Positions 23,797 to 54,006 are shown, counted from the first letter of the stretch. The stretch: 61,390 bases of DNA from Candidatus Daviesbacteria bacterium (GCA_016176335.1 JACOXI010000005.1:1-61390), one strand, 5' to 3'. Numbers and translations: made by a program. Notes: a model not told the origin generated them from the letters alone.

Positions 23797-26579
23797 GGAA
23801 ATATCTCCTTCATAGGTTTCGTCCATGCTTTTTGTAATCTATCAATATCAGCAGAAAACAATTTATCAACAACCAGTTTTTCTTCCTTGATAGTCTTTCC
23901 TAAAATCTTAAACTGTACTCCATTAAATAATTTTTTAGCTATTGTTTCATTTTCTACCTCAACAATAAAACATCCTGCTGTTTCTAACAGTAACTCTTCA
24001 GCATTTGCTTTTATATTGACTCCATTGTTTCCCCCAACACACATATCAAAAATGGCAGTTATTAATCCCCCCTCTGAAACGTCATGAGATGCTAGAACTT
24101 TTCCACTGATAATTGCCTTGTGCATTTTTTCCAAAACCTTAGGTAAAACCTTTAAATAAACTTTTAAATCTTGCTTGCCAACCAAAACAATGGTCGATCC
24201 TACCTTTTTAAAATCAGAAGAAACAGTTTTTTTAACATCTGGAATTTTGCCAAAAACCGAGATACAAACTGTTGGCGGACTATGAATTATGACCCCACTG
24301 GATCCTCTGTATGTAGCGGATAAACTATCTTTTCCTGAAATCACCGGAATCTTTAAAGTCTTCATAAAATCACAAACTGCCGTCACAGATGCATCTAACT
24401 TTCCTAACCATTCCTCAGAAGGATTCGGCCAAATGTAATTGTTAATAAGCGAGGCATTTTTAAAGTCTCCTCCAACTGCAACATAGTTTGAAATGGCTTC
24501 TGTAGCAGACCAGATAGTTCCCCAATAAGGGTCTTCTTTTGTTAATTTAGGGTTCAGGCCATGAGATACGACTAAACCATATGGTTTTTCCAGAATTGGT
24601 TTGATAATTGCTGCATCTTGTGGCCCATCTAAACCAACTCCTGCAAAAGGAGGAAGAACATTTGTTCCCTGTACTGTATGGTCATACATTCTTAAAATGG
24701 GCTCTTTAGAATTGCTGTCACCACCTGATAACGTTTCTTCTAAGAATTTTATCCATTCTTTTTCTGTTGATGGAGTTTTAATTTGTTGGTTTTGTCGTAG
24801 ACCTTGAGCGACCGAAGGGAGTCGAAAGGCCTTCATTACTCTTTGTGGTAATCCACTATGCAAAAATTTCATCTCTAAGTCACCGACTTTCTCTCGACCA
24901 AAGTAAACTTTCAATCTTTTGCTCCCATCATATTCTGCTAATTCTTTAGCCTCTACATTATATTTTTTACAAATTTCTAAAAATTTTCTTAGATTCTTTT
25001 TAGTAAGAATTATTAACATTCTCTCTTGAGATTCAGAAAGGAAAATTTCCCAAGGAGCCAAACCTTGATACTTAAGCGGCGCTTTTTCCAGATGAACTTT
25101 CACCCCAATTTCCGCTCCTGTTTCCCCGATGGCAGAAGAAAACCCTCCGGCTCCTAAATCCTGCACTACCCTTATTAAATCTTTATCTCTGGCCTCAAGT
25201 ATGACATCAAAAATTCTTTTTTCCTCAATGGCATTTCCTATTTGTACAGCTTGAGCGTTTACAGAAATGGTTCTTTCTGTCATTTCACCAGATGAAAAGG
25301 TGGCGCCATGTATCCCATCTCTTCCTGTCCTTCCACCAATCACCAAAGCAACATCTCCTACTCTGGGTTTTCCCTTTTTAGCTTTTGCTTTTGGTAAAAT
25401 TCCATATGCCCCAACTAAAACAATTGGTTTTGCTCTAAAGTCTTCATGAAAATGAAAGGAGCCATTATTTGTGGGGATTCCTACTCTATTGCCATAATCC
25501 CGGACAGCGTAAACTACGCGTTTTAACATATAGTCTGGTGGCAAGGTTCCAGGAGGTAATTTACTTTTATCCATATCAGGTGGGGCAAGACAAAATATAT
25601 CTGTTGATACTAAAGCTTTTGCTCCTTGTCCTGTGGCCACCACATCTCGAAACACTCCACCAGACCCTGTCATGGCTCCTCCGTATGGTTCTATTGCTGA
25701 TGGGGCATTGTGAGTTTCCGCTTTACCGTTTATTGCCCATCCTTCATAAAAATCCATAACTCCGGCATTATCAATAAATGCTGAAACAATATTTTTGTTA
25801 TATTTCAATGCTTCTTTTTTTAATCTTGTAAATAGTGGTTCTTTTTCCTTACCATCTAAAATTATTTTTGCTTTAAAAGTTTTATGGGCACAATGCTCGC
25901 TCCAAGTTTGGGCTAAAGTCTCAAGTTCCAAATCTGTTGGATCTCTTTTAATCTTTTGAAAGTAATTTTGAATAGTTTTCATTTCCTCTAAATTCAGGAA
26001 AAGCTGATCTTGAGAAAGTTCCAAAAGATCGCTATCAGTCATCCGGCGTAGCCGGATCACATTTGTTTTTCCTGGGGTACCTTTTATGAGAAGAGTTTTT
26101 GGTTCTTCTGTTACGAAATGTTCAACCATTTCATTAAGAAGATGAAGTTTCTTGGCAATTTCCTCAATTTCCACCCTGAGCGAACTTGTGGAGAGCGTAG
26201 TCGAACCAGTCGAAGGGCCATAAAAGCCATACTCATGTGATGAATCAGCTGCAATCAGTTTAATTCCTAAATCCTCTGCAGTTTTTAGGATTGAGCCGAC
26301 TTCGGGATTCATGACACCAGGTTTGTAAGCTATCTCAAAAACTAGCTGACTACCCAGAATAGGCGCATTTAAGGTATATTTTTGGTAAATACTTTCACAA
26401 AAAACTTTCTCTGCTAAAACTTTGGCGTCTTTTTCGCTTATCCCCTCAAGTCTATAAACTTTTGCACTTTCAACCTGTGTTACACCTTTTTGCCCAAGAG
26501 TATGATGAATATCATGAAGTATCCCCTCCCCAACTAGATCTCTACCTATAATTGTTTTAACTCTTATTGTATGTATCAT
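23793..26579 (-). CDS. purL: FGAM synthase subunit PurL with a PurS-like N-terminal extension
   Basis: QTWSEHCAHK, ETHNAPSAIEPYGGA, QDLGAGG, SESQERM, SGKDSLS, HDVSEGG. Confidence 0.96.
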   Translation of the reverse strand: MIHTIRVKTIIGRDLVGEGILHDIHHTLGQKGVTQVESAKVYRLEGISEKDAKVLAEKVFCESIYQKYTLNAPILGSQLVFEIAYKPGVMNPEVGSILKTAEDLGIKLIAADSSHEYGFYGPSTGSTTLSTSSLRVEIEEIAKKLHLLNEMVEHFVTEEPKTLLIKGTPGKTNVIRLRRMTDSDLLELSQDQLFLNLEEMKTIQNYFQKIKRDPTDLELETLAQTWSEHCAHKTFKAKIILDGKEKEPLFTRLKKEALKYNKNIVSAFIDNAGVMDFYEGWAINGKAETHNAPSAIEPYGGAMTGSGGVFRDVVATGQGAKALVSTDIFCLAPPDMDKSKLPPGTLPPDYMLKRVVYAVRDYGNRVGIPTNNGSFHFHEDFRAKPIVLVGAYGILPKAKAKKGKPRVGDVALVIGGRTGRDGIHGATFSSGEMTERTISVNAQAVQIGNAIEEKRIFDVILEARDKDLIRVVQDLGAGGFSSAIGETGAEIGVKVHLEKAPLKYQGLAPWEIFLSESQERMLIILTKKNLRKFLEICKKYNVEAKELAEYDGSKRLKVYFGREKVGDLEMKFLHSGLPQRVMKAFRLPSVAQGLRQNQQIKTPSTEKEWIKFLEETLSGGDSNSKEPILRMYDHTVQGTNVLPPFAGVGLDGPQDAAIIKPILEKPYGLVVSHGLNPKLTKEDPYWGTIWSATEAISNYVAVGGDFKNASLINNYIWPNPSEEWLGKLDASVTAVCDFMKTLKIPVISGKDSLSATYRGSSGVIIHSPPTVCISVFGKIPDVKKTVSSDFKKVGSTIVLVGKQDLKVYLKVLPKVLEKMHKAIISGKVLASHDVSEGGLITAIFDMCVGGNNGVNIKANAEELLLETAGCFIVEVENETIAKKLFNGVQFKILGKTIKEEKLVVDKLFSADIDRLQKAWTKPMKEIFP
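24802..24829. repeat. REP-like palindrome in frame in purL
   Basis: CCTTGAGCGACCGAAGGGAGTCGAAAGG, encoding FRLPSVAQG. Confidence 0.8.
26174..26217. repeat. Mosaic REP-like palindrome in frame in purL
   Basis: CCCTGAGC...GAGCGTAGTCGAACC-AGTCGAAGGG, encoding PSTGSTTLSTSSLRV. Confidence 0.8.
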
Positions 26580-26621
26580 ATTCTTAATTCATAATTCTAA
26601 ATTCTTAATTCTTAATTCTAT
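26580..26621. repeat. Heptamer tandem (ATTCTWA-like, 6 units) between purD and purL
   Basis: ATTCTTA ATTCATA ATTCTAA ATTCTTA ATTCTTA ATTCTAT; overlaps the purD stop. Confidence 0.85.
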
Positions 26622-28509
26622 TTATGTCCCTCCATCCGATATCTGTTCTGTAGTGCAGATTATTACCCTCAATACTAATTTTCGCCATTGCTTTGTATGC
26701 TTTTTCTTTTGCCTCAATTACATTCTTCCCCTCTGCGACCAGATGAAAAATACGTCCTCCGTTGACAAAAAACTTATTTCCCTCTCTTTTAATTCCTGCA
26801 CCAAATATGGTGATACCTGGCATCTTTCTAGCATCAATTAAACCGAAAATCTCTTTTCCTTTTACAGATGAATAATCACCCGGATAACCTTTCGAACATC
26901 CCGCTACGGAAAGTCTTACCTTTTTATCAAACACTACCTTAGTATTTTTAATTTTTTGCAATCGAACGGCCTGTACCAGATCTAAATAATCGGTCTGAAT
27001 ACTGGGCAAAATCACTTCCGCCTCCGGATCACCCCACCTGGAGTTAAACTCAATTATTTTTACACCGTCCTTTGTTAACATTCCACCCAGATATAGAATA
27101 CCTTTATATGGTCTTTCCTCTTTTTTCATCCCCTTGAGCAGTGGTTTAAAGATTTTTATCCCAATTATTCGAATCATCGAGGCAGTGACACAACCAGTAG
27201 GAGCAACACTCCCCATCCCTCCTGTGTTTGGTCCCAGGTCCCCATCATAAATGGTTTTGTGATCTTGCGCAGATTTAGCCACAACAAAATCTTCCCCATC
27301 GCTGATGGCAAAAAGTGAAAATTCTTCTCCAATTAAAGCTTGTTCAATCAAAAAAGTTTCACCGGATTTTCCAAATTGCGACATTGACTTAATTGCTTCT
27401 ATCGCTTGTTTTTTGTTCTCTGCTCTTATGGCACCCTTGCCTCCTACCAAGCCGGCTGCTTTGACATACAGGAGCTGTTCAGGAAGAGATTTAACATAGC
27501 TAGTAGCCTCCTTTTTATTAGAAAATGATCTAAATTTTGGGATGGGAAGTCCATATTTGGCCATAAAATTTCTTGCCCACTCTTTATCCCATTCCAGTTG
27601 TGAAGCCTTTTTTGTTGGGCCAAAGGCAGCTATCCCCAATTTCTCTAATCTATCAACATACCCTGCTGCAATAACATCGTCTTGTGCAACATCAACAACA
27701 TCTATTTTCTCTTTTTGACAAACTTTCACAATTCCCTCAAAATCCATCATGGTAACACTCGGATAGTTTTTAATTTTCTTGTTGTGATAATCTGTCAAAC
27801 CATTACCTGGAGTCATGATCACTTTTTTCACTTTTTTACTTTTTGCATAAGTAGCAGCTAAAGCATGTTCGCGTCCGTTTGATCCAATTACCAAAATGTT
27901 CATTTTTCCCTCTTGACAAAGTTTTGCTAAAATATCCACATATAATCTGTTTTCTTTCTTCTTTAACCTCGTGTATAAGGAATCTATACTGTCTCCCTTT
28001 TGAACTTTTTCAAAACACCTACCTAACACAAGTCCAAAATCAAAATCTTTTGATAAAAAATGAATTGTTGAACCCGCATATGTGGCGCCGTTATCAAGAA
28101 AATTCTGTACCGCTTGATCAGTCAATTTTCCTCGATTCCATAAGCCCCAACTTCCATCAGGATTTAAAACTTTTCCATCCATACTGTCAGGAATCAGTCC
28201 CGGGTGAAGATTAACAATTCTATTGGGGAATGACTCTATCACCTCATCTAAAATAATCTGTTTCCAACCAGCAAGGCATATAAAATCTGGATTGAGTTTT
28301 TTCAAAAGAGATAAGAGATTCTGCTTTTTGGGGCAGATTTTAATGGGGAGTTGGTGTTTTCTTGCCCGTTCTAGACCAATCGCATCAGAGGTGTCAGATA
28401 TTACTGCCACAATCTTTGCATTAATTTTCCCAAAATTTACCCCGTCAATAATTGCTTGTAAATTTGTACCTGTTCCAGTGTTGGAAATTAATAATGCAAT
28501 CAGTTTCAT
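26605..28509 (-). CDS. purD: Fused GAR transformylase (PurN) - GAR synthetase (PurD)
   Basis: N-terminal ISNTGTGTNLQA, CLAGWKQI, NLHPG; C-terminal MNILVIGSNGREHA, VKAAGLVGGKG, EFNSRWGDPE, YRTDIG. Confidence 0.92.
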   Translation of the reverse strand: MKLIALLISNTGTGTNLQAIIDGVNFGKINAKIVAVISDTSDAIGLERARKHQLPIKICPKKQNLLSLLKKLNPDFICLAGWKQIILDEVIESFPNRIVNLHPGLIPDSMDGKVLNPDGSWGLWNRGKLTDQAVQNFLDNGATYAGSTIHFLSKDFDFGLVLGRCFEKVQKGDSIDSLYTRLKKKENRLYVDILAKLCQEGKMNILVIGSNGREHALAATYAKSKKVKKVIMTPGNGLTDYHNKKIKNYPSVTMMDFEGIVKVCQKEKIDVVDVAQDDVIAAGYVDRLEKLGIAAFGPTKKASQLEWDKEWARNFMAKYGLPIPKFRSFSNKKEATSYVKSLPEQLLYVKAAGLVGGKGAIRAENKKQAIEAIKSMSQFGKSGETFLIEQALIGEEFSLFAISDGEDFVVAKSAQDHKTIYDGDLGPNTGGMGSVAPTGCVTASMIRIIGIKIFKPLLKGMKKEERPYKGILYLGGMLTKDGVKIIEFNSRWGDPEAEVILPSIQTDYLDLVQAVRLQKIKNTKVVFDKKVRLSVAGCSKGYPGDYSSVKGKEIFGLIDARKMPGITIFGAGIKREGNKFFVNGGRIFHLVAEGKNVIEAKEKAYKAMAKISIEGNNLHYRTDIGWRDINRIKN

Positions 28510-28573
28510 AGCCCAATATAACCTAATTGAGGCTATAAGTCAAGTTTTTTTTAAAAAATGCTATACTTAATTT

Positions 28574-28933
28574 ATGTCTGAAAAAAAATTTAGTGTTCTT
28601 TCTTTTAAATACGCATTAGAGGGTATTGTTACCGCATTAAAAGAAGAGCCTAATCTTAAAATTCATTTTTTCATTTCCGTATTAACGTTAACTCTTTCCT
28701 ATTTCTTACAAATTTCCAGACAAGATTGGATTAATATAATTTTGGTAATAGGCTTTGTGTTTGCCGTAGAATTTACTAATACCGCAATTGAAGCAACTGT
28801 TGATGCATTTACCGAAAGCAAACATCCCGGTGCCAAACTTGCAAAAGATATATCTGCCGGGGCAGTGTTGGTTGCAGCGGTAACCGCGATCGCTTTGGGG
28901 CTGTTAATTTTTTTCCCCTATTTAACCAAATAA
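28574..28933 (+). CDS. dgkA: DgkA-family diacylglycerol/undecaprenol kinase
   Basis: SFKYALEGI, EPNLKIH, EFTNTAIE, AKDISAGAVL. Confidence 0.93.
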   Translation: MSEKKFSVLSFKYALEGIVTALKEEPNLKIHFFISVLTLTLSYFLQISRQDWINIILVIGFVFAVEFTNTAIEATVDAFTESKHPGAKLAKDISAGAVLVAAVTAIALGLLIFFPYLTK

Positions 28934-29457
28934 TGGATAATCTTGGTCTATTTTTTTTCATATTTGGGTTGAGCAATAAAAACGCTTTTTTGGATACTGT
29001 AATGGTTTTTGGTGCTGAATTTGTTGTTTATCTAACCTTGATAATAATTTTCCTGCTGGCGCTCGGAGGAGGGACAAAAGAAAAAAAATCTTTAATTGTG
29101 GCACTTATTAGTGTGCCTGTTGTAATAATCTTGATTAAATTTATACACTTATTTTATCTTGAACCAAGGCCGTTTGTTTCACAAAATATAACTCCTCTGA
29201 TTATACATGCCCAAGATGCCTCATTCCCGTCAAGGCACGAAACAATCATGGCCGCAATTGCTTTTGTATATTTGTACTACAAATCAAAATGGGCACCCCT
29301 TATATTATTTTTGACTGTTTGGGTTGGGATATCAAGAATTTATGTTGGAGTACATTATCCACTGGATATTTTAGGGGGGGTGGTAATTGGTTTACCGGCA
29401 ACTTTCATATCCATAAAGATTAAAAGTTTTTTAAAAGCCAGGTTGATTTCTTTGTAA
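28933..29457 (+). CDS. PAP2-family undecaprenyl-diphosphate phosphatase (BcrC-like)
   Basis: EPRPF, SFPSRH, SRIYVGVHYPLD. Confidence 0.92.
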   Translation: MDNLGLFFFIFGLSNKNAFLDTVMVFGAEFVVYLTLIIIFLLALGGGTKEKKSLIVALISVPVVIILIKFIHLFYLEPRPFVSQNITPLIIHAQDASFPSRHETIMAAIAFVYLYYKSKWAPLILFLTVWVGISRIYVGVHYPLDILGGVVIGLPATFISIKIKSFLKARLISL

Positions 29458-30705: not shown

Positions 30706-30722
30706 TTATATATTAATTGAAA

Positions 30723-36356: not shown

Positions 36357-37685
36357 CTATTTAATCCCTGGTACTGGGAATTTTCCGGCAAAGGCTTTTA
36401 TCTCTTTAGCAATCTCTAGCAATTTTTTATTCTTTACTATTTCTTTTCTAAACTTCTTCCAAAATTCTGATCTTTGTTCTTTATCAGTTGGCATCTGTTC
36501 TCCGCTAACTTCTTCAACGACCCTGTTTATCCAAGCTGCAACTTTCACCATTTCCTTTTCCTTCATTCCACGGGATGTTAAAGCTGGAGTTCCAAGCCTT
36601 ATGCCGGAGGGATAAAATGGTGGCATTGGGTCATTTGGGACTGCATTTTTATTTGTTACAATTCCTGCCACCTCCAAAGCAAGTGCTGCAACTGCTCCGT
36701 TAACATTTTTATTCGATAAATCTATTAAAAGCAAGTGATTATCAGTACCTCCCGAAACTAAATTAAAGCCATGTTTTGTTAATTCAGTGGCTAAAGTTTT
36801 TGCGTTTTTAACAATCTGTGCTCCATATTTTTTAAATGCAGGCGTTGACGCCTCTTCCAGGGCAACTGCGATTGCTGCTGTTGTATTATCATGTGGTCCG
36901 CCCTGAAGACCGGGAAACACAGCTTTATCTATTTTATCTGCAAGGTCCGGATCTTTTTTGAGACCTTTTTCTGTTACCATTAACATTGCTCCCCTTGGTC
37001 CCCTCAAAGTTTTGTGTGTTGTTGTCATCATAATATGTGCATGATCTACGGGTGAAGGATGAACTCCTGCAATAATAAGTCCTGTAATATGAGAGATATC
37101 TGCTAAAAGATAGGCTCCCACCTTGTCGGCAATTTCTCCAAATCTTTTAAAATTAACTGTTCTTGGATAAGCTGTAAAACCACAGACAATAATTTTTGGT
37201 TTTGCCTTTAGAGCGATTTTCTCCAACTCATCATAATCAAGCCACCCATCTGTTCCCAAAGAATAAGGGATTATTTTAAAATATTTCCCTGAAAAAGAAA
37301 CAGGTGAGCCATGTGTTAAGTGTCCACCCGCCCCTAAACCTAACCCCATTATCTTATCTTTAAAAGGTTCTAAAAGAGCTAAATAAACTGCTGCATTTGC
37401 AGGAGAACCAGAATAGGGTTGAACATTTACATGAGGCACATCAAATAATTTTTTAACTAAGTCCTGCGCATAGTCTTCTACGGAATCAGCGATTTTATTT
37501 CCCTGATAATACCTCTTATGCGGATATCCTTCTGAATACTTGTTAATTAAAACTGATCCGACTGCTTTCATGACGTCTGCTGAAGTGTAGTTTTCAGAAG
37601 GGATCATCTCCAAATCTTCTTCTTGTCTTTTCTTTTCTAGATCTATTAATTTAAAAACTTTTTTTGCAGCAACGTGTGATGCCAT
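36357..37685 (-). CDS. glyA: Serine hydroxymethyltransferase
   Basis: LEMIPSENY, NKYSEGYP, GGHLTHG, TTTHKTLRGPRG, SGIRLGT; start uncertain (37685 chosen, below TTGACA-17-GAAAAT). Confidence 0.96.
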   Translation of the reverse strand: MASHVAAKKVFKLIDLEKKRQEEDLEMIPSENYTSADVMKAVGSVLINKYSEGYPHKRYYQGNKIADSVEDYAQDLVKKLFDVPHVNVQPYSGSPANAAVYLALLEPFKDKIMGLGLGAGGHLTHGSPVSFSGKYFKIIPYSLGTDGWLDYDELEKIALKAKPKIIVCGFTAYPRTVNFKRFGEIADKVGAYLLADISHITGLIIAGVHPSPVDHAHIMMTTTHKTLRGPRGAMLMVTEKGLKKDPDLADKIDKAVFPGLQGGPHDNTTAAIAVALEEASTPAFKKYGAQIVKNAKTLATELTKHGFNLVSGGTDNHLLLIDLSNKNVNGAVAALALEVAGIVTNKNAVPNDPMPPFYPSGIRLGTPALTSRGMKEKEMVKVAAWINRVVEEVSGEQMPTDKEQRSEFWKKFRKEIVKNKKLLEIAKEIKAFAGKFPVPGIK

Positions 37686-37720
37686 GGATGCGATCATTTT
37701 CAAACCTGGAGCAGTATTTG

Positions 37721-37748
37721 TCAATACTTCAACTTCATTCAGTATTGA
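37721..37748. repeat. Degenerate REP-like palindrome overlapping the glyA -35 box
   Basis: TCAATACT-TCAACTTCATTC-AGTATTGA. Confidence 0.7.
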
Positions 37749-37767
37749 CCCTGAAGTTAATTTGAAC

Positions 37768-39369
37768 TTAATTAACAGTATCCGAATTAAAAATTTCCGC
37801 AGCGGCTCTGATAATCTCATCATCTGCTGCAACTTCTATATTGGCTACATCCTCCGCTTTTGCCGGCCTGTTCCCCAAAACTGTGGAAACCTTGATAATT
37901 CTTCCCAAAATATCCGACAGTATTGACTCTAACAGTTCCCTGTTTTTTGGGGCTTCCAAGATTCTTTGATGAAATGAATACGGAACTTCCACAATAACAG
38001 CTGTATCAGTACATTCTGTGATATTAATAGATCGAAGCAGAGCTTCCAAAGAAAAATTATACGGCCTGATAGTTTCACAAACATAGGTCCATTTTTCCTT
38101 AAGTTTTTGGATATCGTCGTTAGACTGCGGATATTGGATGATAGGAGATTTCAAGCTCCCATCTTTTACCTCAATTATCTTCAATTTTCTATCTTCTACC
38201 TCTAGCTTCGATCTTCTATCATCTACCGTCTTATTCGTTTCCTCTCCGCATATTTCAATAACCGCTAATTCCAATGGTAATGATGGGATTGATGTAGTCT
38301 TTAACTTTTCATAAGATTTTTGAAAAATATTTAAACTACTACTCAAATCTTGGGCAGTAAACTGATTGGTTAGAGTCAGAAGAGTCGAATATTGCCCGCT
38401 GCCATATTGCGGCTGAACAAGAGACGGGCCCAGATCATTTTTAATGAGTACCAACGCACGCATTATTTCCATCACTGCTCCTGTAAATAATTTAAAGTCA
38501 ATACCAAATTTCTCTAAATTGCTAATTAATAAAATTGAGCTTTTAACATCATGCTTAGCTAAGTTTTCCAATAAACTCAACACCTGCTCAATATCGGTAC
38601 CATGCAGAATTCTCCTGATTTCTGAAGCTTGGACCTTATCACTTATTCCCGATACCTGATCAAGTATCTTAATGGCATCCCTAAAGCTTCCCTGCGCAGC
38701 TGTTTTTAAAATTTGTAGCGCTTCTTCACTTATATCAATTTTTTCAATCTTAATAATTTTCTTGAGCACTTGAGATAATTCTTCTTGTGAGGCCAGTTTA
38801 AAATCCAGTCTTTGGACTCTGGAAAGAATTGTTTGAGGAATTTTCGAGCCTTCAGTTGTTGCCAAAATAAATAGGGCATGCTGGGGCGGTTCCTCTAAAG
38901 TTTTCAAAAGCGCGTTGAAAGCTTCGGGTGTGAGCATATGAACTTCATCAATAATGTATACTTTTTTATTTGCGGCAGTTGGGGCAAGTTTTATTTTCTC
39001 ACGTAAGGACCGAATGTCTTCAATTCCCCTATTTGAGGCAGCATCAATTTCTATTAGATCCAAGTTTGACCCATCGGTAATTGATAAACATGTATCGCAC
39101 CTGTTACAGGGTATATTGTTTATCGTATATCGATTATCGTTTTTGTCTTTACGATTCATGATTAACGATTCACGATTAACGAACTCACAGTTAACCATTT
39201 TTGCCAAAATTCTGGCAGTTGAAGTTTTACCGGTTCCTCTTGGCCCCACAAAAAGATAAGCATGAGATAACCTGTTATTTTGAAAGGCAGACATGAGATT
39301 TTTCTTGACAACATCTTGCCCCGTTAAATCATCTAAAGATTTGGGACGGTACTTTAAATAATAAGTCAT
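37768..39369 (-). CDS. dnaX: DNA polymerase III gamma/tau
   Basis: KYRP, GPRGTGKTS, EIDAASNRG, DEVHML, NALLKTLEEPP, TILSR; two repeat-derived inserts. Confidence 0.97.
   Translation of the reverse strand: MTYYLKYRPKSLDDLTGQDVVKKNLMSAFQNNRLSHAYLFVGPRGTGKTSTARILAKMVNCEFVNRESLIMNRKDKNDNRYTINNIPCNRCDTCLSITDGSNLDLIEIDAASNRGIEDIRSLREKIKLAPTAANKKVYIIDEVHMLTPEAFNALLKTLEEPPQHALFILATTEGSKIPQTILSRVQRLDFKLASQEELSQVLKKIIKIEKIDISEEALQILKTAAQGSFRDAIKILDQVSGISDKVQASEIRRILHGTDIEQVLSLLENLAKHDVKSSILLISNLEKFGIDFKLFTGAVMEIMRALVLIKNDLGPSLVQPQYGSGQYSTLLTLTNQFTAQDLSSSLNIFQKSYEKLKTTSIPSLPLELAVIEICGEETNKTVDDRRSKLEVEDRKLKIIEVKDGSLKSPIIQYPQSNDDIQKLKEKWTYVCETIRPYNFSLEALLRSINITECTDTAVIVEVPYSFHQRILEAPKNRELLESILSDILGRIIKVSTVLGNRPAKAEDVANIEVAADDEIIRAAAEIFNSDTVN
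38119..38226. repeat. Degenerate heptamer array in frame in the dnaX linker
   Basis: CTATCTTCTACCTCTAGCTTCGATCTTCTATCATCTAC and flank; encodes DDRRSKLEVEDRKLK.. Confidence 0.6.
39118..39187. repeat. Inverted heptamer arrays in frame in the dnaX zinc-binding region
   Basis: TATATCG ATTATCG ... ACGATTC ATGATTA ACGATTC ACGATTA; encodes VNRESLIMNRKDKNDNRYTIN. Confidence 0.8.
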
Positions 39370-43760: not shown

Positions 43761-43968
43761 TAAAAAAACACCTCCCCTCTTTTAAGGACGAAGGTGTAAA
43801 CTCCGTGGTACCACCTTAATTGTTTCTTATTCAGGTTATCACGTTACTAACGGGAATACTTCCTCCTTCGCCATACTTCGGCTGACAGGCTTCATACCCA
43901 GCTTGGGGCCTTCGGCCCTGAGGGGCTCAGGCCCTCGAAGGGGCGGGAAACCCCTTCATTGCTTTTCT
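43761..43968 (-). promoter_or_regulatory. T-box riboswitch (antiterminator and terminator clear, stem I atypical)
   Basis: AAGGTGGTACCACGG at 43817-43803; CCCGTTA at 43854-43848; hairpin ACACCTTC..GGAGGTGT followed by a U-tract. Confidence 0.75.
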
Positions 43969-44732
43969 TTTCTAATTTTATCAGGATGTTCTTTTGGTGT
44001 CAAATTTGAATCTTCTTTTCTTGTTTCTTGCCTGTTGTCCTGTTTTTGTGACCGTTGTCTTTCTTCCTCCAGTTTTTTCTTGATTTCCTCAAGCCTTTTT
44101 CTGGCTTCTTCTATTTCCTTTCGTCTTTGCTTTTCCTTTTCTTCTTCCTGCCTATTTGGCCTTGGTGTAGGTTCAACAGTAGGAAGCGGGGTTGAAGTAG
44201 GTTGAACAGTTGGGAGTGGCGTTGGGCGGACAGTTGCAACAGGAGTGGCTTTAGGAGTAGGGGAAGGTATTGTTTCAGCAGATGGAGTTGGAGATGGTGT
44301 AATCGCAGGTTGGAGAACAGCTGGTGGAATGCTTGGCTTCGCAGTCAATTGTTGTAATCCTTGATCGTATTTTTCAATAGATTGAGAAAGTTGGTTGATC
44401 AGTTGTTCTTTTTGTTTTTGGTCTGTTATTTGATTAATTTGACCGGCTGCTATATCTGTTTGTACCACCAACTCGTTTAAAGTCTCTTTTGCTTGTTTTC
44501 CCTCTGTTATCAAAACAGTGACTTCCTGAAATCTCCTGTCAGATCTGGCAGCAGCAAACCAAGCCTTGGAAGTTGGAGTCAAAGATGCCACAGCATAGAT
44601 CACATCTTCTAATCCCCGCTTAATCGGGTATGTGGCATCACCAGGTGCCGCATTATTGGAAATAACAGCCAAGGCAGCCGGAGGGAAAAGTACAATTGTT
44701 AAAATTAAACTGATGATACCGAGCAGTTTCAC
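43956..44732 (-). CDS. Secreted helical protein with a P/T-rich linker (DUF5667-like, tentative)
   Basis: Signal peptide, APGDATYPIKRGLE motif, PT repeats, charged tail. Confidence 0.7.
   Translation of the reverse strand: MKLLGIISLILTIVLFPPAALAVISNNAAPGDATYPIKRGLEDVIYAVASLTPTSKAWFAAARSDRRFQEVTVLITEGKQAKETLNELVVQTDIAAGQINQITDQKQKEQLINQLSQSIEKYDQGLQQLTAKPSIPPAVLQPAITPSPTPSAETIPSPTPKATPVATVRPTPLPTVQPTSTPLPTVEPTPRPNRQEEEKEKQRRKEIEEARKRLEEIKKKLEEERQRSQKQDNRQETRKEDSNLTPKEHPDKIRKEKQ
43975..44003 (-). promoter_or_regulatory. Near-consensus promoter for the T-box leader
   Basis: TTGACA-17-TAAAAT with TG extension, inside the 3' end of the upstream ORF. Confidence 0.8.
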
Positions 44733-46520: not shown

Positions 46521-46534
46521 AATAATGTATAAAA

Positions 46535-46683
46535 GACAGCGAAGTCGCGAGCTAGAAAAAATGTAGTGCAGTTGAGCACATTCCAGACCCCATGTTTTCG
46601 AGGTCATTGCTCGGCGTGAAACAAACTCCAAGCGAGCGAGTCCCTACAGCGCGAGCGGTTTTTTCAGCCGTGACGAGCCGACT
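46535..46683. other. Structured ~149-nt intergenic element, copy A
   Basis: Shares terminal blocks and fold with 50695-50838. Confidence 0.7.
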
Positions 46684-47131: not shown

Positions 47132-47134
47132 ATA

Positions 47135-47974
47135 CTAAATCACCTTTCTTTCAAAATCCTTAACTGTGGCCTTCTCAATTTCCTCCTCTGCCACTGCCAC
47201 TTCCATCTTTACATCTTCCGGCAATTCCTCCTCCTGTGCTTTTTTCTCCGCTGCTTCCTTGTCCCGCGAAGCTTTAGCAGAGTAGGATTTTTTGCCCTCT
47301 TCATAAGCTTCTGCCACAGCCTCTGTTAACATTTTAATAGATTTTATGGCATCATCATTACCCGGAATCGGGTAATCAATTAATGTGGGGTCACAATTTG
47401 AGTCAGCTATAGCAACAACTTTTATACCCAGTTTTGCAGCCTCTTTAACAGCGATCTTATCAGATACCGCATCCACCACAAAAATGGCATCAGGCAATTC
47501 GTCCAAATCCAAAACCCCGCCCAAATCTTTTTGCAACTTGTCCATTCGCCGTTCTATCAATAATTGCTCTTTTTTGGTATATTTTGAAAGAGTGCCTTTT
47601 TCTTTTTGATCTTTAAACTCCTTTAGCTTCTTGATATTTTTCTTGACTTCCTCAAAATTAGTCAGAAAACCTCCTATCCATCGTTGTGTCAGAAAAGGGG
47701 CTTGAAGTTTTTTCGCCAGCTCTTCAACAATTCCTTGTGCCTGTTTTTTGGTACCTACAAAAAGTATAATCTTTCCCTCTTTGCCAAAATTATAAACAGC
47801 GCCAGTGGCTTCTGTAAGATATTTTTCCGATTGGGTCAAATCAATAATATGTACTCCCTCTCTGGCGCCATAAATATATGGTTTCATCCTGGGATGGCCA
47901 CGGCTAACCTGATGTCCAAAATGAACACCAGCTTCTAATAATTCCTGTAATGTTGGCAATTTATATGCTGACAT
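47135..47974 (-). CDS. rpsB: 30S ribosomal protein uS2
   Basis: LLEAGVHFGH, FVGTKKQA, RWIGGFLTNF, PIPGNDDAIKS. Confidence 0.98.
   Translation of the reverse strand: MSAYKLPTLQELLEAGVHFGHQVSRGHPRMKPYIYGAREGVHIIDLTQSEKYLTEATGAVYNFGKEGKIILFVGTKKQAQGIVEELAKKLQAPFLTQRWIGGFLTNFEEVKKNIKKLKEFKDQKEKGTLSKYTKKEQLLIERRMDKLQKDLGGVLDLDELPDAIFVVDAVSDKIAVKEAAKLGIKVVAIADSNCDPTLIDYPIPGNDDAIKSIKMLTEAVAEAYEEGKKSYSAKASRDKEAAEKKAQEEELPEDVKMEVAVAEEEIEKATVKDFERKVI
47258..47287. repeat. REP-like palindrome in frame in the rpsB tail
   Basis: CTTGTCCCGCGAAGCTTTAGCAGAGTAGGA, encoding SYSAKASRDK; related to 43863-43889. Confidence 0.65.
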
Positions 47975-48070
47975 AGTCTCTTATCCTCCCCGTAATGCTG
48001 TGGTCAGAGACTTAAAAAACTACGGGTGTGTAATTGAGGTTATTTTAACAACCAAAGCCCGATAAATCAA
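47975..48070 (-). promoter_or_regulatory. rpsB promoter and structured leader
   Basis: TTGATT-17-TAAAAT; ACACACCCGTA..TACGGGGAGG; AGTCTCT..AGAGACT. Confidence 0.65.
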
Positions 48071-48121
48071 GTCGTAGAAAGTTAGAGTGTATCAGCTTCT
48101 CCTTTGTTATATAATTTCCTC

Positions 48122-48586: not shown

Positions 48587-48606
48587 AGGCTTTAAATTTT
48601 GGGCTG

Positions 48607-49092
48607 TTACATCTCAAAATCTAAAAATTTATACCTAAAACCTTCATGTTCCTGCCAATCTGATTCAAAAACCACCTTTTTAAAATCAGAATAATCCGGG
48701 AAAAAGACATCTCCTTCTATCTCTTTATCTATTTTAGTTAAATACAGCTTGTCAGCTAAAGGCAGGGCCTGTTTATAAATTTCTCCTCCGCCGATGACGA
48801 AAATCTCCTCGTCTCCGGGTTTACCTTGAGCAACGTTCAGACCTTCATCCAATGAATGAACAATAATACACCCCAATGCTCTGTAACCCGGTTCATGAGT
48901 GATCACAATATTTGTTCGACCTCCTAAAGCTTTGCCAATAGACTCATGGGTTTTTCTGCCCATAATGATAGGATGTCCCATGGTAATTTCTTTAAATCTT
49001 TTTAGCTCGGCCGGTATATACCAAGGAAGGCCTCCTTTTTTCCCAATGACTCTTTTCTTTCCTGCCACTGCTACAATGATGCTAATCTTCAT
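48607..49092 (-). CDS. folA: Dihydrofolate reductase
   Basis: LPWYIPAELKRFK, IIMGRKT, VIGGGEIY, GDVFFP. Confidence 0.97.
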   Translation of the reverse strand: MKISIIVAVAGKKRVIGKKGGLPWYIPAELKRFKEITMGHPIIMGRKTHESIGKALGGRTNIVITHEPGYRALGCIIVHSLDEGLNVAQGKPGDEEIFVIGGGEIYKQALPLADKLYLTKIDKEIEGDVFFPDYSDFKKVVFESDWQEHEGFRYKFLDFEM

Positions 49093-49097
49093 AGGTA

Positions 49098-49144
49098 AAT
49101 TTAGAATTTATAATTCATAATTTAATTCTGAATTCTAGATTCTC
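49098..49144. repeat. Heptamer array between thyA and folA
   Basis: TAATTCA TAATTTA ATTCTGA ATTCTAG ATTCT. Confidence 0.65.
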
Positions 49145-50122
49145 TCAAAAACCGCCTACCACTGTTACTTCTCCTTTAATTGGCGGGTAAGGATTGTATC
49201 CAACAAGTTCAAAATCTTCCAATTTAAAATCATCAATATTTTTAATTTTAGGATTAATTTTCATTTTCGGGAAAGGTCGAGGTGTCCTTTTAAGTTGTTC
49301 TTTAACAGCCTCAAAGTGGTTACTGTAAATATGAACATCGCCAAAAGTATGGACAAATTCGCCTGGTTTTAGCCCAACCACTTGAGCAAGCATCATGGTA
49401 AAAAGAGCATATGAGGCAATATTAAAAGGAACACCCAAGAAAGTGTCTGCTGACCGCTGATATAGCTGCAGAGATAATCTCCCTTTATTGACGTTAAACT
49501 GAAAAAGAGTATGGCAAGGAGGCAAAGCCATGGATTTTCCCTTTAAGGCCATCTCATAAATGAACTCCGGATTCCAGGCAGATACCACAATAGATTTTCT
49601 AAACGGCGTTGTTTTTAACTCGCTTATTGCCCAAGCCAGCTGGTCTATAACTCTGCCATCAGATGTTCTCCATCTCCTCCATTGCACTCCATACACATTG
49701 CCCAAATCCCCCCATTTTTTAACAAAAGGATCACTCTTTGGCAATTCCTTTATTTTCTGTATAAACTCTTCCTGTGTCATTAAGCTTTTCGCTTTTCGCT
49801 TTTCGCTTTTCGCCAGGACTACTCTGTAGCCCTTATAAGCCCATTCATCCCAAATGTGCACATCCTGATCAACCAGATACTTAATATTTGAATCTCCCTT
49901 TAAAAACCAAAGTAGCTCATGAATTATTCCTCTCAAAAAAACTTTTTTAGTAGTTAAAAGCGGAAAACCCACTGATAGATCAAACCTCATCTGTCTTCCG
50001 AAAACAGATTTGATATGTACCCCTGGATTATTGAATACTGGTTTATTAACCCCGTTTTTAAGGATATCTTGTAATAAATCTAAATATTGATACTCTTCAT
50101 GTCTAAACTTGTTGTTCGGCAT
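49145..50122 (-). CDS. thyA: Thymidylate synthase
   Basis: [45 protein letters not shown]. Confidence 0.98.
49784..49811. repeat. Perfect (GCTTTTC)x4 in frame in thyA
   Basis: Encodes [10 protein letters not shown]. Confidence 0.9.
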
Positions 50123-50687
50123 CTGTAGGACTTATTCTACCACCTTGATGCTGACCTCTGTAACTGACAGTTTGCCCTTCAATCTTAAAGAAAACTATGT
50201 TACAAATTCTAGCCCCCATTTGCAGCCTTACATCAAACTCACTCAAATTTTTTAATCCCATGGTAAGAGTTCCTTTGTATCCCGGATCGGTTTTAGAATT
50301 TAACAGCAAAAGTCCTGCTCTAAAAAGAGAGGTTCTGGGGAAAACTACCGGCATTAAATCCTTGGGCGTATTCAGCGACTCCACCGTGGATGCCAAATAA
50401 TACTCGCCTGATTTTATCACAACCCACTGCTGATTTCTTTTCCTCTTCTTAAATTCAGCCAGAACCTGTGTCTTCACACCCCTCCTTTTCCCTAGCACTA
50501 CTTGCCCTGAGCTTGTCGAAGGGTCCCCTTGTATAAATGCTCCACCTTGCACAATTTGATAAACAGCACCCAACCTCAAATCTATCCCTACACCTTCCGG
50601 ATTCTTAAGCTCTCTTTTGCCTAAATTTTTTACAAGAGAATGCTTTTTAATTCTTTTGTGAATTTCGTTAATACCAAGTACGCTCAT
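50103..50687 (-). CDS. dCTP deaminase/dUTPase-family protein
   Basis: [30 protein letters not shown]; start moved to MSVLG. Confidence 0.85.
50504..50523. repeat. REP-like palindrome in frame
   Basis: GCCCTGAGCTTGTCGAAGGG, encoding PSTSSGQ. Confidence 0.85.
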
Positions 50688-50694
50688 AAATATA

Positions 50695-50838
50695 AGTAGC
50701 GAAGTCAGCAGCGGCCAAAAAATGTTGAGGATTTTGTGCAATAGTACTCAATGTCTTTGAATATCTAAATCACAAAATTCTCACCAAGCGAGTAAGTTCC
50801 TACCGTGCGAGCGATTTTTTGCGCGCTGACGAGCTACT
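50695..50838. other. Structured 144-nt element, copy B
   Basis: AGTAGC/GCTACT, GTCAGC/GCTGAC, A6/T6 and GAGGATTTTGTG/CACAAAATTCTC arms. Confidence 0.7.
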
Positions 50839-51477
50839 TCTCTTCCCCGTTATATTTGATACTTCAGGCATATTACTACCCCCATATCTGTTATTAGGAG
50901 AATTTTTGTATGAACGGGACACAGGCGCTGCTAACTTTTCAAAAGAAAATGCACAAATTGGAGCTCCCTCATAAATCACCACTCTTTTACCTTTTAAAAA
51001 AGTGCCAAATTCCAAAACAGGATGACCATTCCAACCAGGGTCAAATCTGGCTGCTGTGGAATGAACCGCAATTCCCAAGCGGGCCAACGAACTTTTTCCA
51101 TGCAAATGTCCCACAATGTTATCCGGCAAAGTCAATTTTTCTTTGGTGGTGGCAATCACAAAATCTTTATCCGACAAAACAAAAGGCTGGCCCGGCTTTA
51201 GTTCAATCAGCTTCATCATAGATTCCATTTCTTGTTTGGTTGTATGCTTGGTGTCAATAATATCCCAGCCGTCACCAGTGAATACTCGAAGTTTATTTCC
51301 CAGATGAAAATCAATTGTCACCTCATCAACTGATTCTTCCCAGTTGTTAGGAAGAGGGTCAATTTTTATAATACCTTTTTTAATATAATCTTTGATAACC
51401 CAATCAGGCAAAGTTCCAACAATATCATGGACAGAAGATTTTTTTGAAGACTTGTTCTTTGGCATACTCTTTCTCAA
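50800..51477 (-). CDS. dcd: dCTP deaminase
   Basis: IDFHLGN, GKSSLARLGI, DPGWNG, ICAFSFE. Confidence 0.88.
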   Translation of the reverse strand: MRKSMPKNKSSKKSSVHDIVGTLPDWVIKDYIKKGIIKIDPLPNNWEESVDEVTIDFHLGNKLRVFTGDGWDIIDTKHTTKQEMESMMKLIELKPGQPFVLSDKDFVIATTKEKLTLPDNIVGHLHGKSSLARLGIAVHSTAARFDPGWNGHPVLEFGTFLKGKRVVIYEGAPICAFSFEKLAAPVSRSYKNSPNNRYGGSNMPEVSNITGKRSSSSARKKSLAR

Positions 51478-51544
51478 AGGCTAGTTTAGCTTAAAGTTCG
51501 GAAAAATCCAAGGTGGCAAAATAAGTAGAGCTTGCTTCGCTCGC

Positions 51545-52789
51545 TTAAAAATTAAGCGTCGCGAAGTAGTCATCAACTGTTTCTGCACGGCGAATCATTT
51601 CCACTGTACCATCAACTTTTAACAAAAGTTCAGCTGAACGCAGTTTCCCATTATAGTTAAACCCCATGGCATAACCGTGTGCACCTGTATCATGAATCAC
51701 AATAATATCGCCGATCTCTATTTTGGGTAGTTCTCTATCAACTGCAAACTTATCATTGTTCTCACACAAAGATCCTACCACATCATAAGTATGATTTTTA
51801 GGAGATTTTTCTTTCCCTAAAATAGTCTCATGATGATAAGCCCCGTACATCCCAGGTCTCATTAAATTGGCCATACAAGCATCCACCCCGATGTAGTCTT
51901 TATAGGTGTGTTTTTCATGAATTGTTGTTGTCACCAAATATCCGAAAGGTCCTGTTATCATCCTGCCACATTCATAGAATATCTTTAAGGGGTCTAGGTG
52001 ATTTTTAACAATTTTTTGCTCATATAATTTTTTAACCCTTTTGGCAAGCTTCTCTAAATTAACTTCTTCTTGCTCTACTTTGTAAGGAATTCCAATCCCT
52101 CCACCCAAATTTACAAACTCCAGTTTTATTCCCAGTTTTTCATAAACCTCAACTGTTAGATCAAAAAGCATGGCTGCAGTTTCTGCCAAAGCTTTTATGT
52201 CCAGCTCGTTTGAAACAACCATGGTGTGCAACCCAAACCTTTTTACACCTTTAGCTTTCATAATTTTGTATCCCTCAAAAAGCTGATTTTTGGTCATCCC
52301 ATACTTTGCTTCTTCAGGCTTTCCAATAATGGTATTTACTCCGCTTTTTCTTAAAGGTCCTGGGTTGTACCTAAAACAGATAATGTCAGGAGTATCAAGA
52401 GATTCCAGCATCTCAATGTGGGTAATATCATCCAAATTTATTATGGCTCCCAAACTTTTGGCTTTTTTAAACTCTTTTTGCGGAGTATCATTCGAGGAAA
52501 ACATGATATTTTCTCCCAAAATCCCAACTGTTTCTGCCATCATCAGCTCCGGCAAAGAGCTGCAATCCGTACCCATTCCCTCTTTTTTTAGAATTTTTAA
52601 AATATAAGGGTTAGGGCAAGCCTTGACAGCAAAATAGTTTTTAAAATTTGGCGCCCAGGAAAATGCTTGATAGAATCTTTTGGCATTTTCCCTTATTCTT
52701 TTTTCATCATAAATATGAAAAGGTGTGGGATATTTTTTAATTATTTTTTCAATTTGCTGTTTATTAAATGGTAATTTTTTTGTGCTCAT
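51545..52789 (-). CDS. lysA: Diaminopimelate decarboxylase
   Basis: YFAVKACPN, NLGGGIG, ECGR, GSLCENND, GAHGYAMGFNYN. Confidence 0.95.
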   Translation of the reverse strand: MSTKKLPFNKQQIEKIIKKYPTPFHIYDEKRIRENAKRFYQAFSWAPNFKNYFAVKACPNPYILKILKKEGMGTDCSSLPELMMAETVGILGENIMFSSNDTPQKEFKKAKSLGAIINLDDITHIEMLESLDTPDIICFRYNPGPLRKSGVNTIIGKPEEAKYGMTKNQLFEGYKIMKAKGVKRFGLHTMVVSNELDIKALAETAAMLFDLTVEVYEKLGIKLEFVNLGGGIGIPYKVEQEEVNLEKLAKRVKKLYEQKIVKNHLDPLKIFYECGRMITGPFGYLVTTTIHEKHTYKDYIGVDACMANLMRPGMYGAYHHETILGKEKSPKNHTYDVVGSLCENNDKFAVDRELPKIEIGDIIVIHDTGAHGYAMGFNYNGKLRSAELLLKVDGTVEMIRRAETVDDYFATLNF

Positions 52790-54006
52790 AAATTTAAATT
52801 CTCTTTAATGCTTATCATGGCTTTTCTAACATTCTCTCTGTGTCCAAATGCAGACAACCTTAAGTATCCTTCTCCCATTTGACCAAAGCCTGAACCCGGA
52901 GTGCCAACTACATGAGCTTTTTTAAGCAGCTTATCAAAAAATTCCCAAGAGGAAAGCCCTTCGGGACATTTAACCCAAAGATAAGGAGCATTTTCTCCCC
53001 CAAAAACCGTCAGACCCATATCCTTCAAACCTCGTTTAATAATCGCGGCGTTCTCCATGTAATAATTAACCTGTTTTCGCGTCTGTTTTTGTCCTTCCGC
53101 AGAAAGAATTGCCAACCCCCCTTCCTGGGCAATATTGGAGGCCCCATTAAACATAGTGGTTTGTCTTCTATGCCAAAACTGGTTTATCTCACCAGGCTGA
53201 CTCCCTTCCACAATTAAATCTTTTGGCACCACTGTCCACCCTAACCTTACTCCTGTAAAACCTGCACTTTTAGAAAAACTTTGCAGCTCTATTGCACAAC
53301 TTTTCGCCCCCTTGATTTCGTAAATACTTGTTGGTAAATTTTTATCCTTTATATACTCGGAGTAAGCTGCATCAAAAATAATAACAGCTCGGTTTCCAGT
53401 AGCATAATCCACAAACTCCTTAAGCTGTTTTTTTGTTGCCACTGCTCCTGTTGGATTATTAGGAAAACACAAAAAGATTAAATCAACTTTTTGTTTTGGG
53501 AGAGTTGGGATAAAACCATTTTTTTCATCAGCCGATAAGTAGACTATCTTCTTTCCAGCAATCACATTTGAATCCAAATAAACAGGGTAAACAGGATCAG
53601 TAATGGCGACCACACTATCAGGACTAAAGATAGAAGAAATGTTAGCGGCATCCGGTTTGGCCCCATCAGATATAAATATCTCATCAGCTAAAAGATTAAT
53701 TCCTCTTTTTTTACCAGCGCCAGCTGGCAAGCTGTGCTTATACCAGTCGGATAAAGCCTGTCTTAACCTGCTATCGCCTTGTTCGTCACCATATCCTGTG
53801 TAACTATCTAATTTGGCTAACTTTTTAACACCGTTTATCAATCCGTCAATAACAGATGGAGCTAAAGGCTCGGTGGTATTACCTATCCCCAATTTTAAAA
53901 TTTCAACTTTTGGATTTTTTTCTAAAAATGCCTCTGTTCTTTTGGCAATTTCGGAAAACAAATAACTTTTGGGCAGTTTTCGATAATTGGAATTAATTTT
54001 TGCCAT
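52786..54006 (-). CDS. dapL: LL-diaminopimelate aminotransferase
   Basis: SYLFSEIAKR, LGIGNTT, ISDGAK, PNNPTG, SFSKSAGFTGVR. Confidence 0.93.
   Translation of the reverse strand: MAKINSNYRKLPKSYLFSEIAKRTEAFLEKNPKVEILKLGIGNTTEPLAPSVIDGLINGVKKLAKLDSYTGYGDEQGDSRLRQALSDWYKHSLPAGAGKKRGINLLADEIFISDGAKPDAANISSIFSPDSVVAITDPVYPVYLDSNVIAGKKIVYLSADEKNGFIPTLPKQKVDLIFLCFPNNPTGAVATKKQLKEFVDYATGNRAVIIFDAAYSEYIKDKNLPTSIYEIKGAKSCAIELQSFSKSAGFTGVRLGWTVVPKDLIVEGSQPGEINQFWHRRQTTMFNGASNIAQEGGLAILSAEGQKQTRKQVNYYMENAAIIKRGLKDMGLTVFGGENAPYLWVKCPEGLSSWEFFDKLLKKAHVVGTPGSGFGQMGEGYLRLSAFGHRENVRKAMISIKENLNL
53714..53733. repeat. Small palindromic insert in frame in dapL
   Basis: GCCAGCTGGC core, encoding SLPAGAG between DWYK and KRGIN. 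Confidence 0.5.

Follow-up and report, generated by a model that had tools for sequence, protein, structure and literature searches.

How do core biosynthetic enzymes acquire short peptides that their orthologues lack, encoded by DNA that looks alike from one gene to another? The question is raised by a 61,390-nt stretch of a Candidatus Daviesbacteria genome (JACOXI010000005.1:1-61390; hereafter the window), which holds at least three classes of short repeat modules: a ~25-nt hairpin unit that we call family A, one GTCAT-tagged hairpin of the Ssn/NTS type, and heptamer cassettes; one further insert, 27 nt in dapL, belongs to none of these classes. Both intergenic DNA and, in frame, permissive loops and linkers of housekeeping genes have received such modules; a unit may stand alone, be paired as an inverted doublet, belong to a tandem array or be nested. 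We consider it likely that they are non-autonomous hairpin repeats, tolerated in surface loops and spread by an enzyme acting in trans. The PurL, DapL and S2 orthologues carry the names Candidatus Daviesbacteria or Microgenomates, and the genome is therefore one of the candidate phyla radiation (CPR; Patescibacteria). The window has a GC content of ~38%, nearly all of its genes lie on the minus strand, and its GC skew is negative throughout. The analysis draws on the window, ~2 Mb of further loci, protein databases and public sequencing runs; copy counts for this genome are those of the 61-kb window rather than of the whole genome.

Are the extra peptides insertions? A preliminary description, made from the sequence of the window, had placed in-frame palindromes in purL (twice), the rpsB tail, the dcd-like gene and dapL, besides guaA; a direct check finds its five peptides where it put them, all on the minus strand. 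Protein alignments with orthologues, together with DNA comparisons, identify four sites as insertions. In guaA, a 49-nt composite element (22874-22922, plus strand; DNA fold z -2.4), an outer hairpin whose loop encloses a family A unit (22890-22915), encodes LKPFDLAQGGQVQDD and makes the protein nine residues longer at this point than seven orthologues. In purL, residues 122-136 (PSTGSTTLSTSSLRV; 26172-26216, coding on the minus strand, with the unit on the plus strand) are a family A unit with a second unit nested in it, and add ten residues relative to ~80 PurS-PurL orthologues of 60-80% identity: nearly all of these have 5-6 residues at the site, as against 15 in the window (PSTTLR in P0009; PST, a different core, and STTSLRV in P0002). 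In the dcd-like gene, a family A copy at 50502-50526, read as DPSTSSGQ (PSTSSGQ, 50502-50522, minus strand), adds five residues exactly at PSTSS relative to the closest homologue (P0361, 72% identical); the reading frame as listed (50103-50741) begins 18 codons early, as all homologues start at M19 (MSVLGINE...), which is probably the true start. In dapL, a GC-rich 27-nt insert (53713-53739, minus strand; DNA fold z -2.0) encodes the nine residues KHSLPAGAG (SLPAGAG, 53713-53733), which the window shares with P0122 and P0125 and which 32 orthologues lack; an empty site (L210) reads TGG TAT/GAA AAA, and the filled site reads TGG TAT, the 27 nt, then AAA AAA. The dapL insert is a singleton of no recognised family, with no relatives in the ~2 Mb of compared loci and no spike in metagenome depth.

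If these peptides are tolerated, where in the proteins do they lie? In the AlphaFold model of DapL (mean pLDDT 88.7), the insert forms coil after helix 79-90, and the only segment below 50, residues 94-97, is within it; in the model of the dcd-like protein (mean pLDDT 92.2), the insert is in the coil of residues 53-66, the region of lowest pLDDT. Both predicted positions fit tolerated surface loops; the purL and dcd inserts were also aligned to PDB entries, which are too distant to place either of them. The proposal that core enzymes harbour, and tolerate, in-frame members of several different short repeat families is thus upheld by the alignments and predicted structures, and its surface-loop component by the models of DapL and the dcd-like protein, these two only.

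Chance GC-rich palindromes in coding sequence, or assembly artefacts, could in principle mimic such inserts, and at some of the flagged sites chance is the answer. The supposed insert in the rpsB tail (SYSAKASRDK, 47258-47287, minus strand) is neither an insertion nor a repeat member: it aligns without gaps to tails of the same length in all 35 orthologues, its fold is that of shuffled sequence (z -0.1 to -0.25), and it has no DNA relatives in the ~2 Mb compared. The hairpin attributed to the glyA promoter, upstream of the serine hydroxymethyltransferase gene (36357-37832), is AT-rich and unrelated to family A. A covariance match at 22099-22124 (E 0.033) was rejected as a family A copy, since it encodes the conserved GuaA motif DPEQKRRI, and conserved Gly/Pro/Arg motifs account for many of the window's GC-rich 24-mers. 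The guaA, purL 122-136, dcd-like and dapL sites are different: orthologues do not match them in length, and the indels are clean against dozens of these. The region is present in seven groundwater runs from two studies, and contigs from independent runs of both studies span the purL, dcd-like and dapL inserts with zero differences, so these three are not assembly artefacts. With the motif statistics given below, chance or artefact is refuted for the four sites and stands only for rpsB and glyA; as a general account it is very improbable.

What, then, do the units have in common? The guaA, dcd-like and purL sites share the motif CCTTCGAC-N2-3-GCTCAGG(R), which defines family A. The octamer CCTTCGAC occurs six times in the window against 0.71 expected (~8-fold), a count reached by none of 100 shuffles: on the plus strand at 5838 and 6530, in the direct repeats R1 and R2, and on the minus strand at 22904 (guaA), 26209 (purL), 50515 (dcd-like) and 60360 (pyrG leader). 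A covariance model built from 68 aligned family A units and run on the window with filters off returns five matches with E <= 1e-4 and three weaker ones. The best is the dcd-like copy (50502-50526, plus strand; E 1.5e-6, 31.2 bits), followed by the pyrG leader (60346-60371, plus; E 7.7e-6), where the unit ends 14 nt upstream of the pyrG ATG; the copies in R1 (5834-5859, minus) and R2 (6526-6551, minus), both at E 1.5e-5; and the inner unit of the guaA element (22890-22915, plus; E 7.7e-5). The weaker matches are the composite palindrome upstream of csaA-like and proS (43905-43935, minus; E 0.015), a variant in the purL linker (24799-24832, plus; E 0.15) and the inner purL unit (26186-26211, plus; E 0.64). 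This census gives four coding and four intergenic places. All copies in the window are singletons, not doublets, and their 5' flanks read TTGTC, TTGCC, CCGTC or CCACC.

The intergenic relatives announced for R1/R2 and the pyrG leader are thereby confirmed; the one in the supposed T-box leader is a composite or partial relative. The palindrome there (CCTTCG-GCCCTGAG-GGG-CTCAGG-CCCTCGAAGG; 43905-43945, unstranded) is GC-rich, contains family A half-motifs and is the strongest DNA hairpin of the window (-12.8 kcal/mol), but its covariance scores are weak (E 0.015 on the minus and 0.91 on the plus strand). Searched at the gathering threshold, Rfam finds no T-box in the leader (43761-44003) and no match of any family across the whole window.

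Is a small genome the reason for these copies? The 61-kb window has 5-8 of them, against four strong covariance matches in 174 kb of relatives, and the strict pattern has no match in four relative loci that are 61-74% identical (L121-L124); the density of family A is therefore several-fold higher in this lineage, and it varies several-fold between this genome and its close relatives. The reduced genome that the preliminary description had made part of its explanation is not the key feature, as the main family is pan-bacterial and close relatives have far fewer copies.

The pan-bacterial spread emerges from a scan of one genome per species (596 Gb) with a pattern of 15 specified bases, which is found in at least 120 contigs across many phyla (Bacteroidota, Chloroflexota, Cyanobacteriota, Actinomycetota, Acidobacteriota, Nitrospirota, Planctomycetota, Proteobacteria, Saccharibacteria and others), although ~3,000 chance matches are estimated for a search of this size and a single match proves little. 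The flanks of the matches are non-random: the consensus is GYTCRY on one side and RYGARC on the other (RY upstream and RYGARC downstream), and AA or AG predominates in the centre. When the relaxed inner core TCGAC-N2-4-GCTC is used instead, the three bases on either side prove to be complementary and to change together: CCT/AGG in 144 cases, GCT/AGC in 21, GGT/ACC in 19, and rarer pairs. Among 177 core matches with non-canonical flanks, 65 have all three pairs, against 17.6 in shuffles. In the alignment of 68 units (A5), the fourth stem pair, which played no part in their selection, is paired in 64 (UA 23, CG 21, GC 13), and the covariation score is 0.57 against 0.20 in shuffles and collapses when the partner columns are slid. 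The unbiased tests of the stem are the outer pairs of this alignment and the 177-match flank count; together they identify family A as a ~25-nt hairpin unit with a free but complementary stem and an invariant GAGC-N2-3-GTCGA apex. This is the reverse of what the preliminary description had said of the repeats, namely that sequences differ while stems are kept: in the main family, the apex is invariant from CPR to Proteobacteria, Chloroflexota, Bacteroidota and Cyanobacteria, and it is the stems that vary and covary. The strand with GAGC-NN-GTCGA could form two sheared G.A pairs and a G-C pair at the apex; its complement could not.

Family A matches no described RNA family: across 15 motif-bearing loci, Rfam recognises only tRNA, SRP RNA and 5S rRNA. 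Other identities were considered and rejected. The register does not fit a derivative of a tRNA T-arm or D-arm; core residues of a hammerhead or of a K-turn (C/D box) are missing; a DNA uptake sequence is incompatible with the pan-phylum distribution; and neither attC nor dif sites match by consensus.

An invariant apex on covarying stems is also what a functional structured element would look like. Could family A units have been selected as terminators, mRNA stabilisers, translation modulators or sites for host proteins, or their peptides as useful loops? In other genomes many copies either follow a gene closely or are intergenic, one copy in the window precedes the pyrG start by 14 nt and one composite sits in a leader, and the dapL insert is nearly unchanged in three lineages despite diverged flanking codons. 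Yet the occupancy of sites is erratic among close orthologues, the same site may be filled by unrelated modules, copy density differs several-fold between relatives, and the inserts are predicted to lie in the least ordered loops and match nothing in Rfam. Moreover, the mRNA of the coding copies is the strand that is unable to form the G.A apex. The layouts, too, are those of repeats. In other genomes, 54 of 77 adjacent unit pairs are no more than 100 nt apart, and 39 of these 54 are inverted; Sphingobium chromids carry family A at up to 22 places per replicon. Inverted doublets on a Sphingobium plasmid (AP027312.1, L206; 18690-18790) and a Moraxella osloensis plasmid (L209; 2500-2560), both from cultivable hosts, combine two stem subfamilies and lie just downstream of genes; elsewhere units form tandem arrays or cap the tips of heptamer-repeat hairpins. 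Selection for function therefore seems an unlikely origin of the units, and the regulatory role that the preliminary description gave to the intergenic copies finds no support in these data.

Nesting bears on how the units arose. Family A units nest in the loops of other units, as in purL of the window and of L201, and of other repeats, as in the guaA hairpin. The purL 122-136 site offers a series at a single position: it is empty in L202, holds a simple 18-mer (CCTTCGACTACGCTCAGG) in L203 and has an extra centre in the window and in L201. L201 keeps the ends seen in the window, and between them a second unit lies inverted and closed by an 8-bp stem of its own; the centre of the window copy (26186-26211) is a stem-swapped unit, GGAGAGC-GTA-GTCGAACC, in which GG...CC closing pairs replace CC...GG. 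Metagenome contigs tell where the units begin and end. The summed contig depth rises 10-60-fold over 22709-23082 and 26075-26261; loose contig ends at 22874 and 22922 mark the limits of the guaA unit, within a 10-60-fold spike, and those at 26175 and 26215, again with a spike, delimit a 41-nt purL repeat. In many contigs the likeness to the window is confined to 22874-22922 or 26175-26215, beyond which the sequences part; the guaA and purL units therefore recur in other contexts in the community.

Such recurrence is hard to reconcile with a purely local origin, by slippage, template switching or snap-back synthesis at GC-rich microhomologies, in which the likeness between units would be due to convergence or composition and neither an enzyme nor transfer would be involved. 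Local events could account for some of what is seen here: the heptamer cassettes of thyA and of the purL-purN/D spacer are classic slippage products, the centre of purL 122-136 resembles a partial internal duplication, and no relatives can be detected for the dapL insert, the purL 585-593 variant or the rpsB tail. For family A, by contrast, the DNA similarity is better than chance: many phyla, and several unrelated sites of the window, share one identical core of 17-18 nt together with its specific flanks, whole composite units of 49 and 41 nt are found elsewhere, and compensatory stem swaps around an unchanged apex are not what slippage predicts. As an explanation of the whole set, local origin is improbable, somewhat more so than selection for function.

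The second purL site shows how one position can be filled in different ways. Residues 585-593 (FRLPSVAQG; 24801-24827, minus strand) lie in a linker between GLPQRVMKA and PKxEKE whose length ranges from 14 to ~35 residues among orthologues, and whose peptides differ from one to the next: the heptamer-coded SRQSSVVSRQ, the palindromic THVKVAPSLRSHLNMP, LRGAYSVTSEV...LLRGGP and VIPSEARNL. The window has a diverged family A variant here (24799-24832, plus strand), reading CCTTGAGC, 13 nt and CGAAAGG, in which the motif takes the form CCTTTCGAC...GCTCAAGG; LRLPSVAQGLRQ is common to the linkers of the window and P0034, and some others, L124 among them, carry in the same linker an oppositely oriented family A unit, read as HPER..K..EG. 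The variant is a singleton, with no relatives in the ~2 Mb of compared loci and no metagenome depth spike. Of the two purL insertions proposed, then, the one at 122-136 holds, and the one at 585-593 is better described as a linker of hypervariable length with a weak match to family A (E 0.15). These comparisons show that permissive sites are refilled by different modules in different lineages.

The purL neighbourhood is itself variable. PurS-PurL is one fused protein of 928 residues (23793-26579) and PurN-PurD (Formyl_trans_N and GARS) another of 634 (26605-28509); both fusions are common to the relatives. A purF gene lies upstream in L201 and L202 but not at the corresponding place in the window; and the closest purL relative (L201, 79%) has an extra 228-residue open reading frame (ORF) between purL and purQ (9822-10508, no Pfam match) that is missing from the window and L202. 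The spacer between purL and purN/D (26583-26620) consists of AT-rich heptamer repeats (ATTCTTA-like), over which metagenome word depth is ~5,000-25,000, which makes this repeat extremely common in the community. An in-frame heptamer cassette that the preliminary description did not list is found in thyA (49783-49813, minus strand; TCGCTTT on the plus strand), where three to four units encode KSEKRKAKS: a 12-mer is repeated three times at period 7, with a depth spike and loose contig ends at 49783 and 49810-49813, and ThyA is ~45 residues longer than the Pfam profile.

If family A is nested in the guaA hairpin, what is the hairpin itself? On the plus strand it reads GTCAT-CCTGAA, a 29-nt loop with family A, and TTCAGG-ATC; the same outer hairpin with another loop filling is found in L131. 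In the relative L123, a 96-residue GIY-YIG gene (22299-22640; Pfam GIY-YIG E 2.4e-16) directly follows guaA, is 43% identical to the gonococcal ssnA locus, and is flanked by the inverted hairpins GTCAT-CCCGAA...TTCGGG-ATC and GTCAT-GCTGAA...TTCAGC-ATC; the window has no gene at this place, and its GTCAT hairpin is inside guaA itself. The Neisseria NTS has the form CGTCAT-TCCCGCG-...-CGCGGGA-ATC (PMC11893778). The GTCAT head and ATC tail shared with the L123 ssnA hairpins and the published NTS thus suggest that the outer guaA element is plausibly an Ssn-related hairpin of the NTS type.

How might family A move? On the reading that we favour, its units would fold as single-stranded DNA, and the folded unit would be recognised through its apex by a candidate sequence-specific, structure-dependent enzyme acting in trans, which would cut and re-join the unit or copy it, much as may be envisaged for RAYT (IS200/IS605-like Y1) transposases on REP/REPINs or for the Ssn GIY-YIG single-strand nucleases on NTS/SRM hairpins. 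Selection would then retain, in coding sequence, only those copies that preserve the frame and lie in loops, where they would be translated as extra coil; their effects on the host proteins are most likely neutral.

Several observations weigh against spread by such an enzyme. First, the folding evidence is uneven: simple copies in the window fold like shuffles under standard nearest-neighbour parameters (z 0 to +0.8), so that the "in-frame palindromes" of the preliminary description are indeed in frame but inexact as palindromes, with the sequence core being what is kept; the three innermost stem pairs of A5 were selected to pair and carry no weight; and complementary stems could stem from the manufacture of the unit rather than from selection. 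Second, the nearest relatives are only ~80% identical, and hence no exact junction or target-site duplication can be defined, and no empty/filled polymorphism within populations is seen in Logan contigs, which cannot show absence; the purL-seeded metagenome scan yields few close relatives, and its statistics on orientation and on coding versus intergenic copies are weak for this reason. Third, searches for an enzyme of family A were negative. Clustering of ORFs within 600 bp of 137 family A copies yields no recurrent gene family, and neither a regular expression nor phmmer finds a GIY-YIG gene in the window or in 120 motif-selected loci. On either side of the Ssn genes in L123, Sphingobium and Sinorhizobium lie GTCA[CT] hairpins or RIME-like repeats rather than family A; two RAYT loci (of a Chloroflexota and of a Kovacikia cyanobacterial plasmid) have GTAG REP flanks and no family A core; and the window yields no match to the SRM pattern as published, although that pattern also misses the hairpins flanking L123 ssnA. 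No RAYT was found in the window, none matched in family A-rich plasmids (a search that covered plasmids only), and a loose scan for GTCAT hairpins did no better on the window than on shuffles.

Other small elements in the window lie apart from these sites. R1 (5829-5885) and R2 (6521-6576), 96% identical over 56 nt, are direct repeats that bracket an NYN-domain nuclease gene (5984-6421, minus strand; domain E 4.8e-24) in an AT-rich island with toxin-antitoxin-like genes, and may mark the boundaries of a cassette. Nearby, a GC-rich hairpin (6791-6850; GCGACTCGCCTCGCTGTCGCTTGGGCGAAGCGGGC, ~-10.9 kcal/mol) inside an ORF without a Pfam match (6633-7052) has a 33-nt relative in L123, 91% identical, and so represents another small repeat family. 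The ORF at 7090-8316 encodes a DEAD-box helicase and is not glyA; a GC-rich stretch in its N-terminal region (7174-7203, PNGPRRDPRR) may be another small insert. A very stable hairpin at 51523-51577 (AGCTTGCTTCGCTCGCTTAAAAATTAAGCGTCGCGAAG, -12.5 kcal/mol), for which no relatives were found, sits between lysA and the second dcd paralogue and overlaps the Ser/Arg/Lys-rich C-terminal tail of that paralogue.

If family A is mobile, what kind of element is it? A bolder version of the argument, which we regard as possible but doubtful, would make it a pan-bacterial, ultra-small mobile DNA of ~25 nt whose apex, with two sheared G.A pairs on a stem of free sequence, is recognised by a single-strand-specific enzyme of neither the RAYT nor the Ssn type examined here; this enzyme would paste units into the loops of other repeats and into unrelated sites, and in the small, spacer-poor genomes of CPR would thus be a steady source of new loops in essential enzymes. 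Even short of this, stems that covary beneath a conserved apex point to a protein, specific, widespread and as yet unnamed, that binds or cuts DNA. We know of no enzyme that spreads family A; were one found, it would constitute a third system beside REP-RAYT and NTS-Ssn and could yield a site-specific tool for single-stranded DNA. There are practical consequences as well: short-read assemblies break at the repeats, where Logan contigs end, and the repeats yield spurious "low-complexity" peptides in metagenomes (PSTSSGQ, PFDLAQG, HPERAKRVEG) and inflate apparent divergence in alignments of marker genes.

How does all this compare with what is known? Searches of the literature with the peptides and with family A 14-mers return only primers or nothing, and we could not find a description of the apex-conserved family, of its spread across phyla, or of its colonisation of CPR housekeeping genes. 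Parts of the picture are familiar: in-frame palindromic repeats are known from the Rickettsia palindromic elements (RPE) and nested mini-repeats from the SDR elements, and REPs within ORFs have been described (PMC3733652).

The closest parallel to the guaA outer hairpin is provided by the NTS/SRM elements, directional hairpins of 20-50 nt with a 5' GTC(A/T)Y head and a conserved C behind the palindrome that flank a small nuclease gene and are widespread (Chenal et al. 2025, PMC11893778): the layout of the guaA hairpin is alike, and a Daviesbacteria relative has an SsnA homologue between such hairpins. Family A differs from them in that it lacks the GTCWY head, its 5' flank consensus being GYTCRY, and half of its copies in the window are coding, whereas 2% of Neisseria NTS lie inside genes (PMC11893778). 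REPs and REPINs are imperfect palindromes of 20-40 nt, often in inverted doublets and mostly intergenic, and have been proposed to be mobilised in trans as folded single strands (Bertels & Rainey 2011, PMC3116915; PMC3733652); some are found inside ORFs (Di Nocera et al. 2013, PMC3733652). Family A shares with them the inverted doublets with a short spacer seen in other genomes; unlike them, it has neither GTAG nor a fixed CGTC tag, and conserves its apex rather than the foot of its stem.

Two further systems come closer in behaviour than in sequence. SDR1-8 of Nostocaceae, attributed to Elhai and colleagues (2008), are reportedly nested mobile mini-repeats of 21-27 nt without obvious target duplication, found alongside heptamer repeats; they are said to have been described only in heterocystous cyanobacteria, and colonisation of core enzymes in frame is reportedly not their main feature. 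The likeness, by description only, is that the units of the window are also nested in one another and in other repeats. The RPE, attributed to Ogata and colleagues (2000) and also discussed in PMC3733652, are said to be in-frame palindromic repeats of ~100-150 bp in essential genes, confined to Rickettsia. Like them, the modules of the window are in frame, translated, tolerated in surface regions, absent from orthologues at the purL, guaA, dcd-like and dapL sites, present also between genes, and carried by a small-genome host; unlike them, they are 15-50 nt long, belong to several families and nest, and the main family is pan-bacterial. If family A is mobile, CPR would thus be the second clear case, after Rickettsia, of selfish repeats continually remodelling the loops of essential proteins, with units five-fold smaller and common to many phyla.

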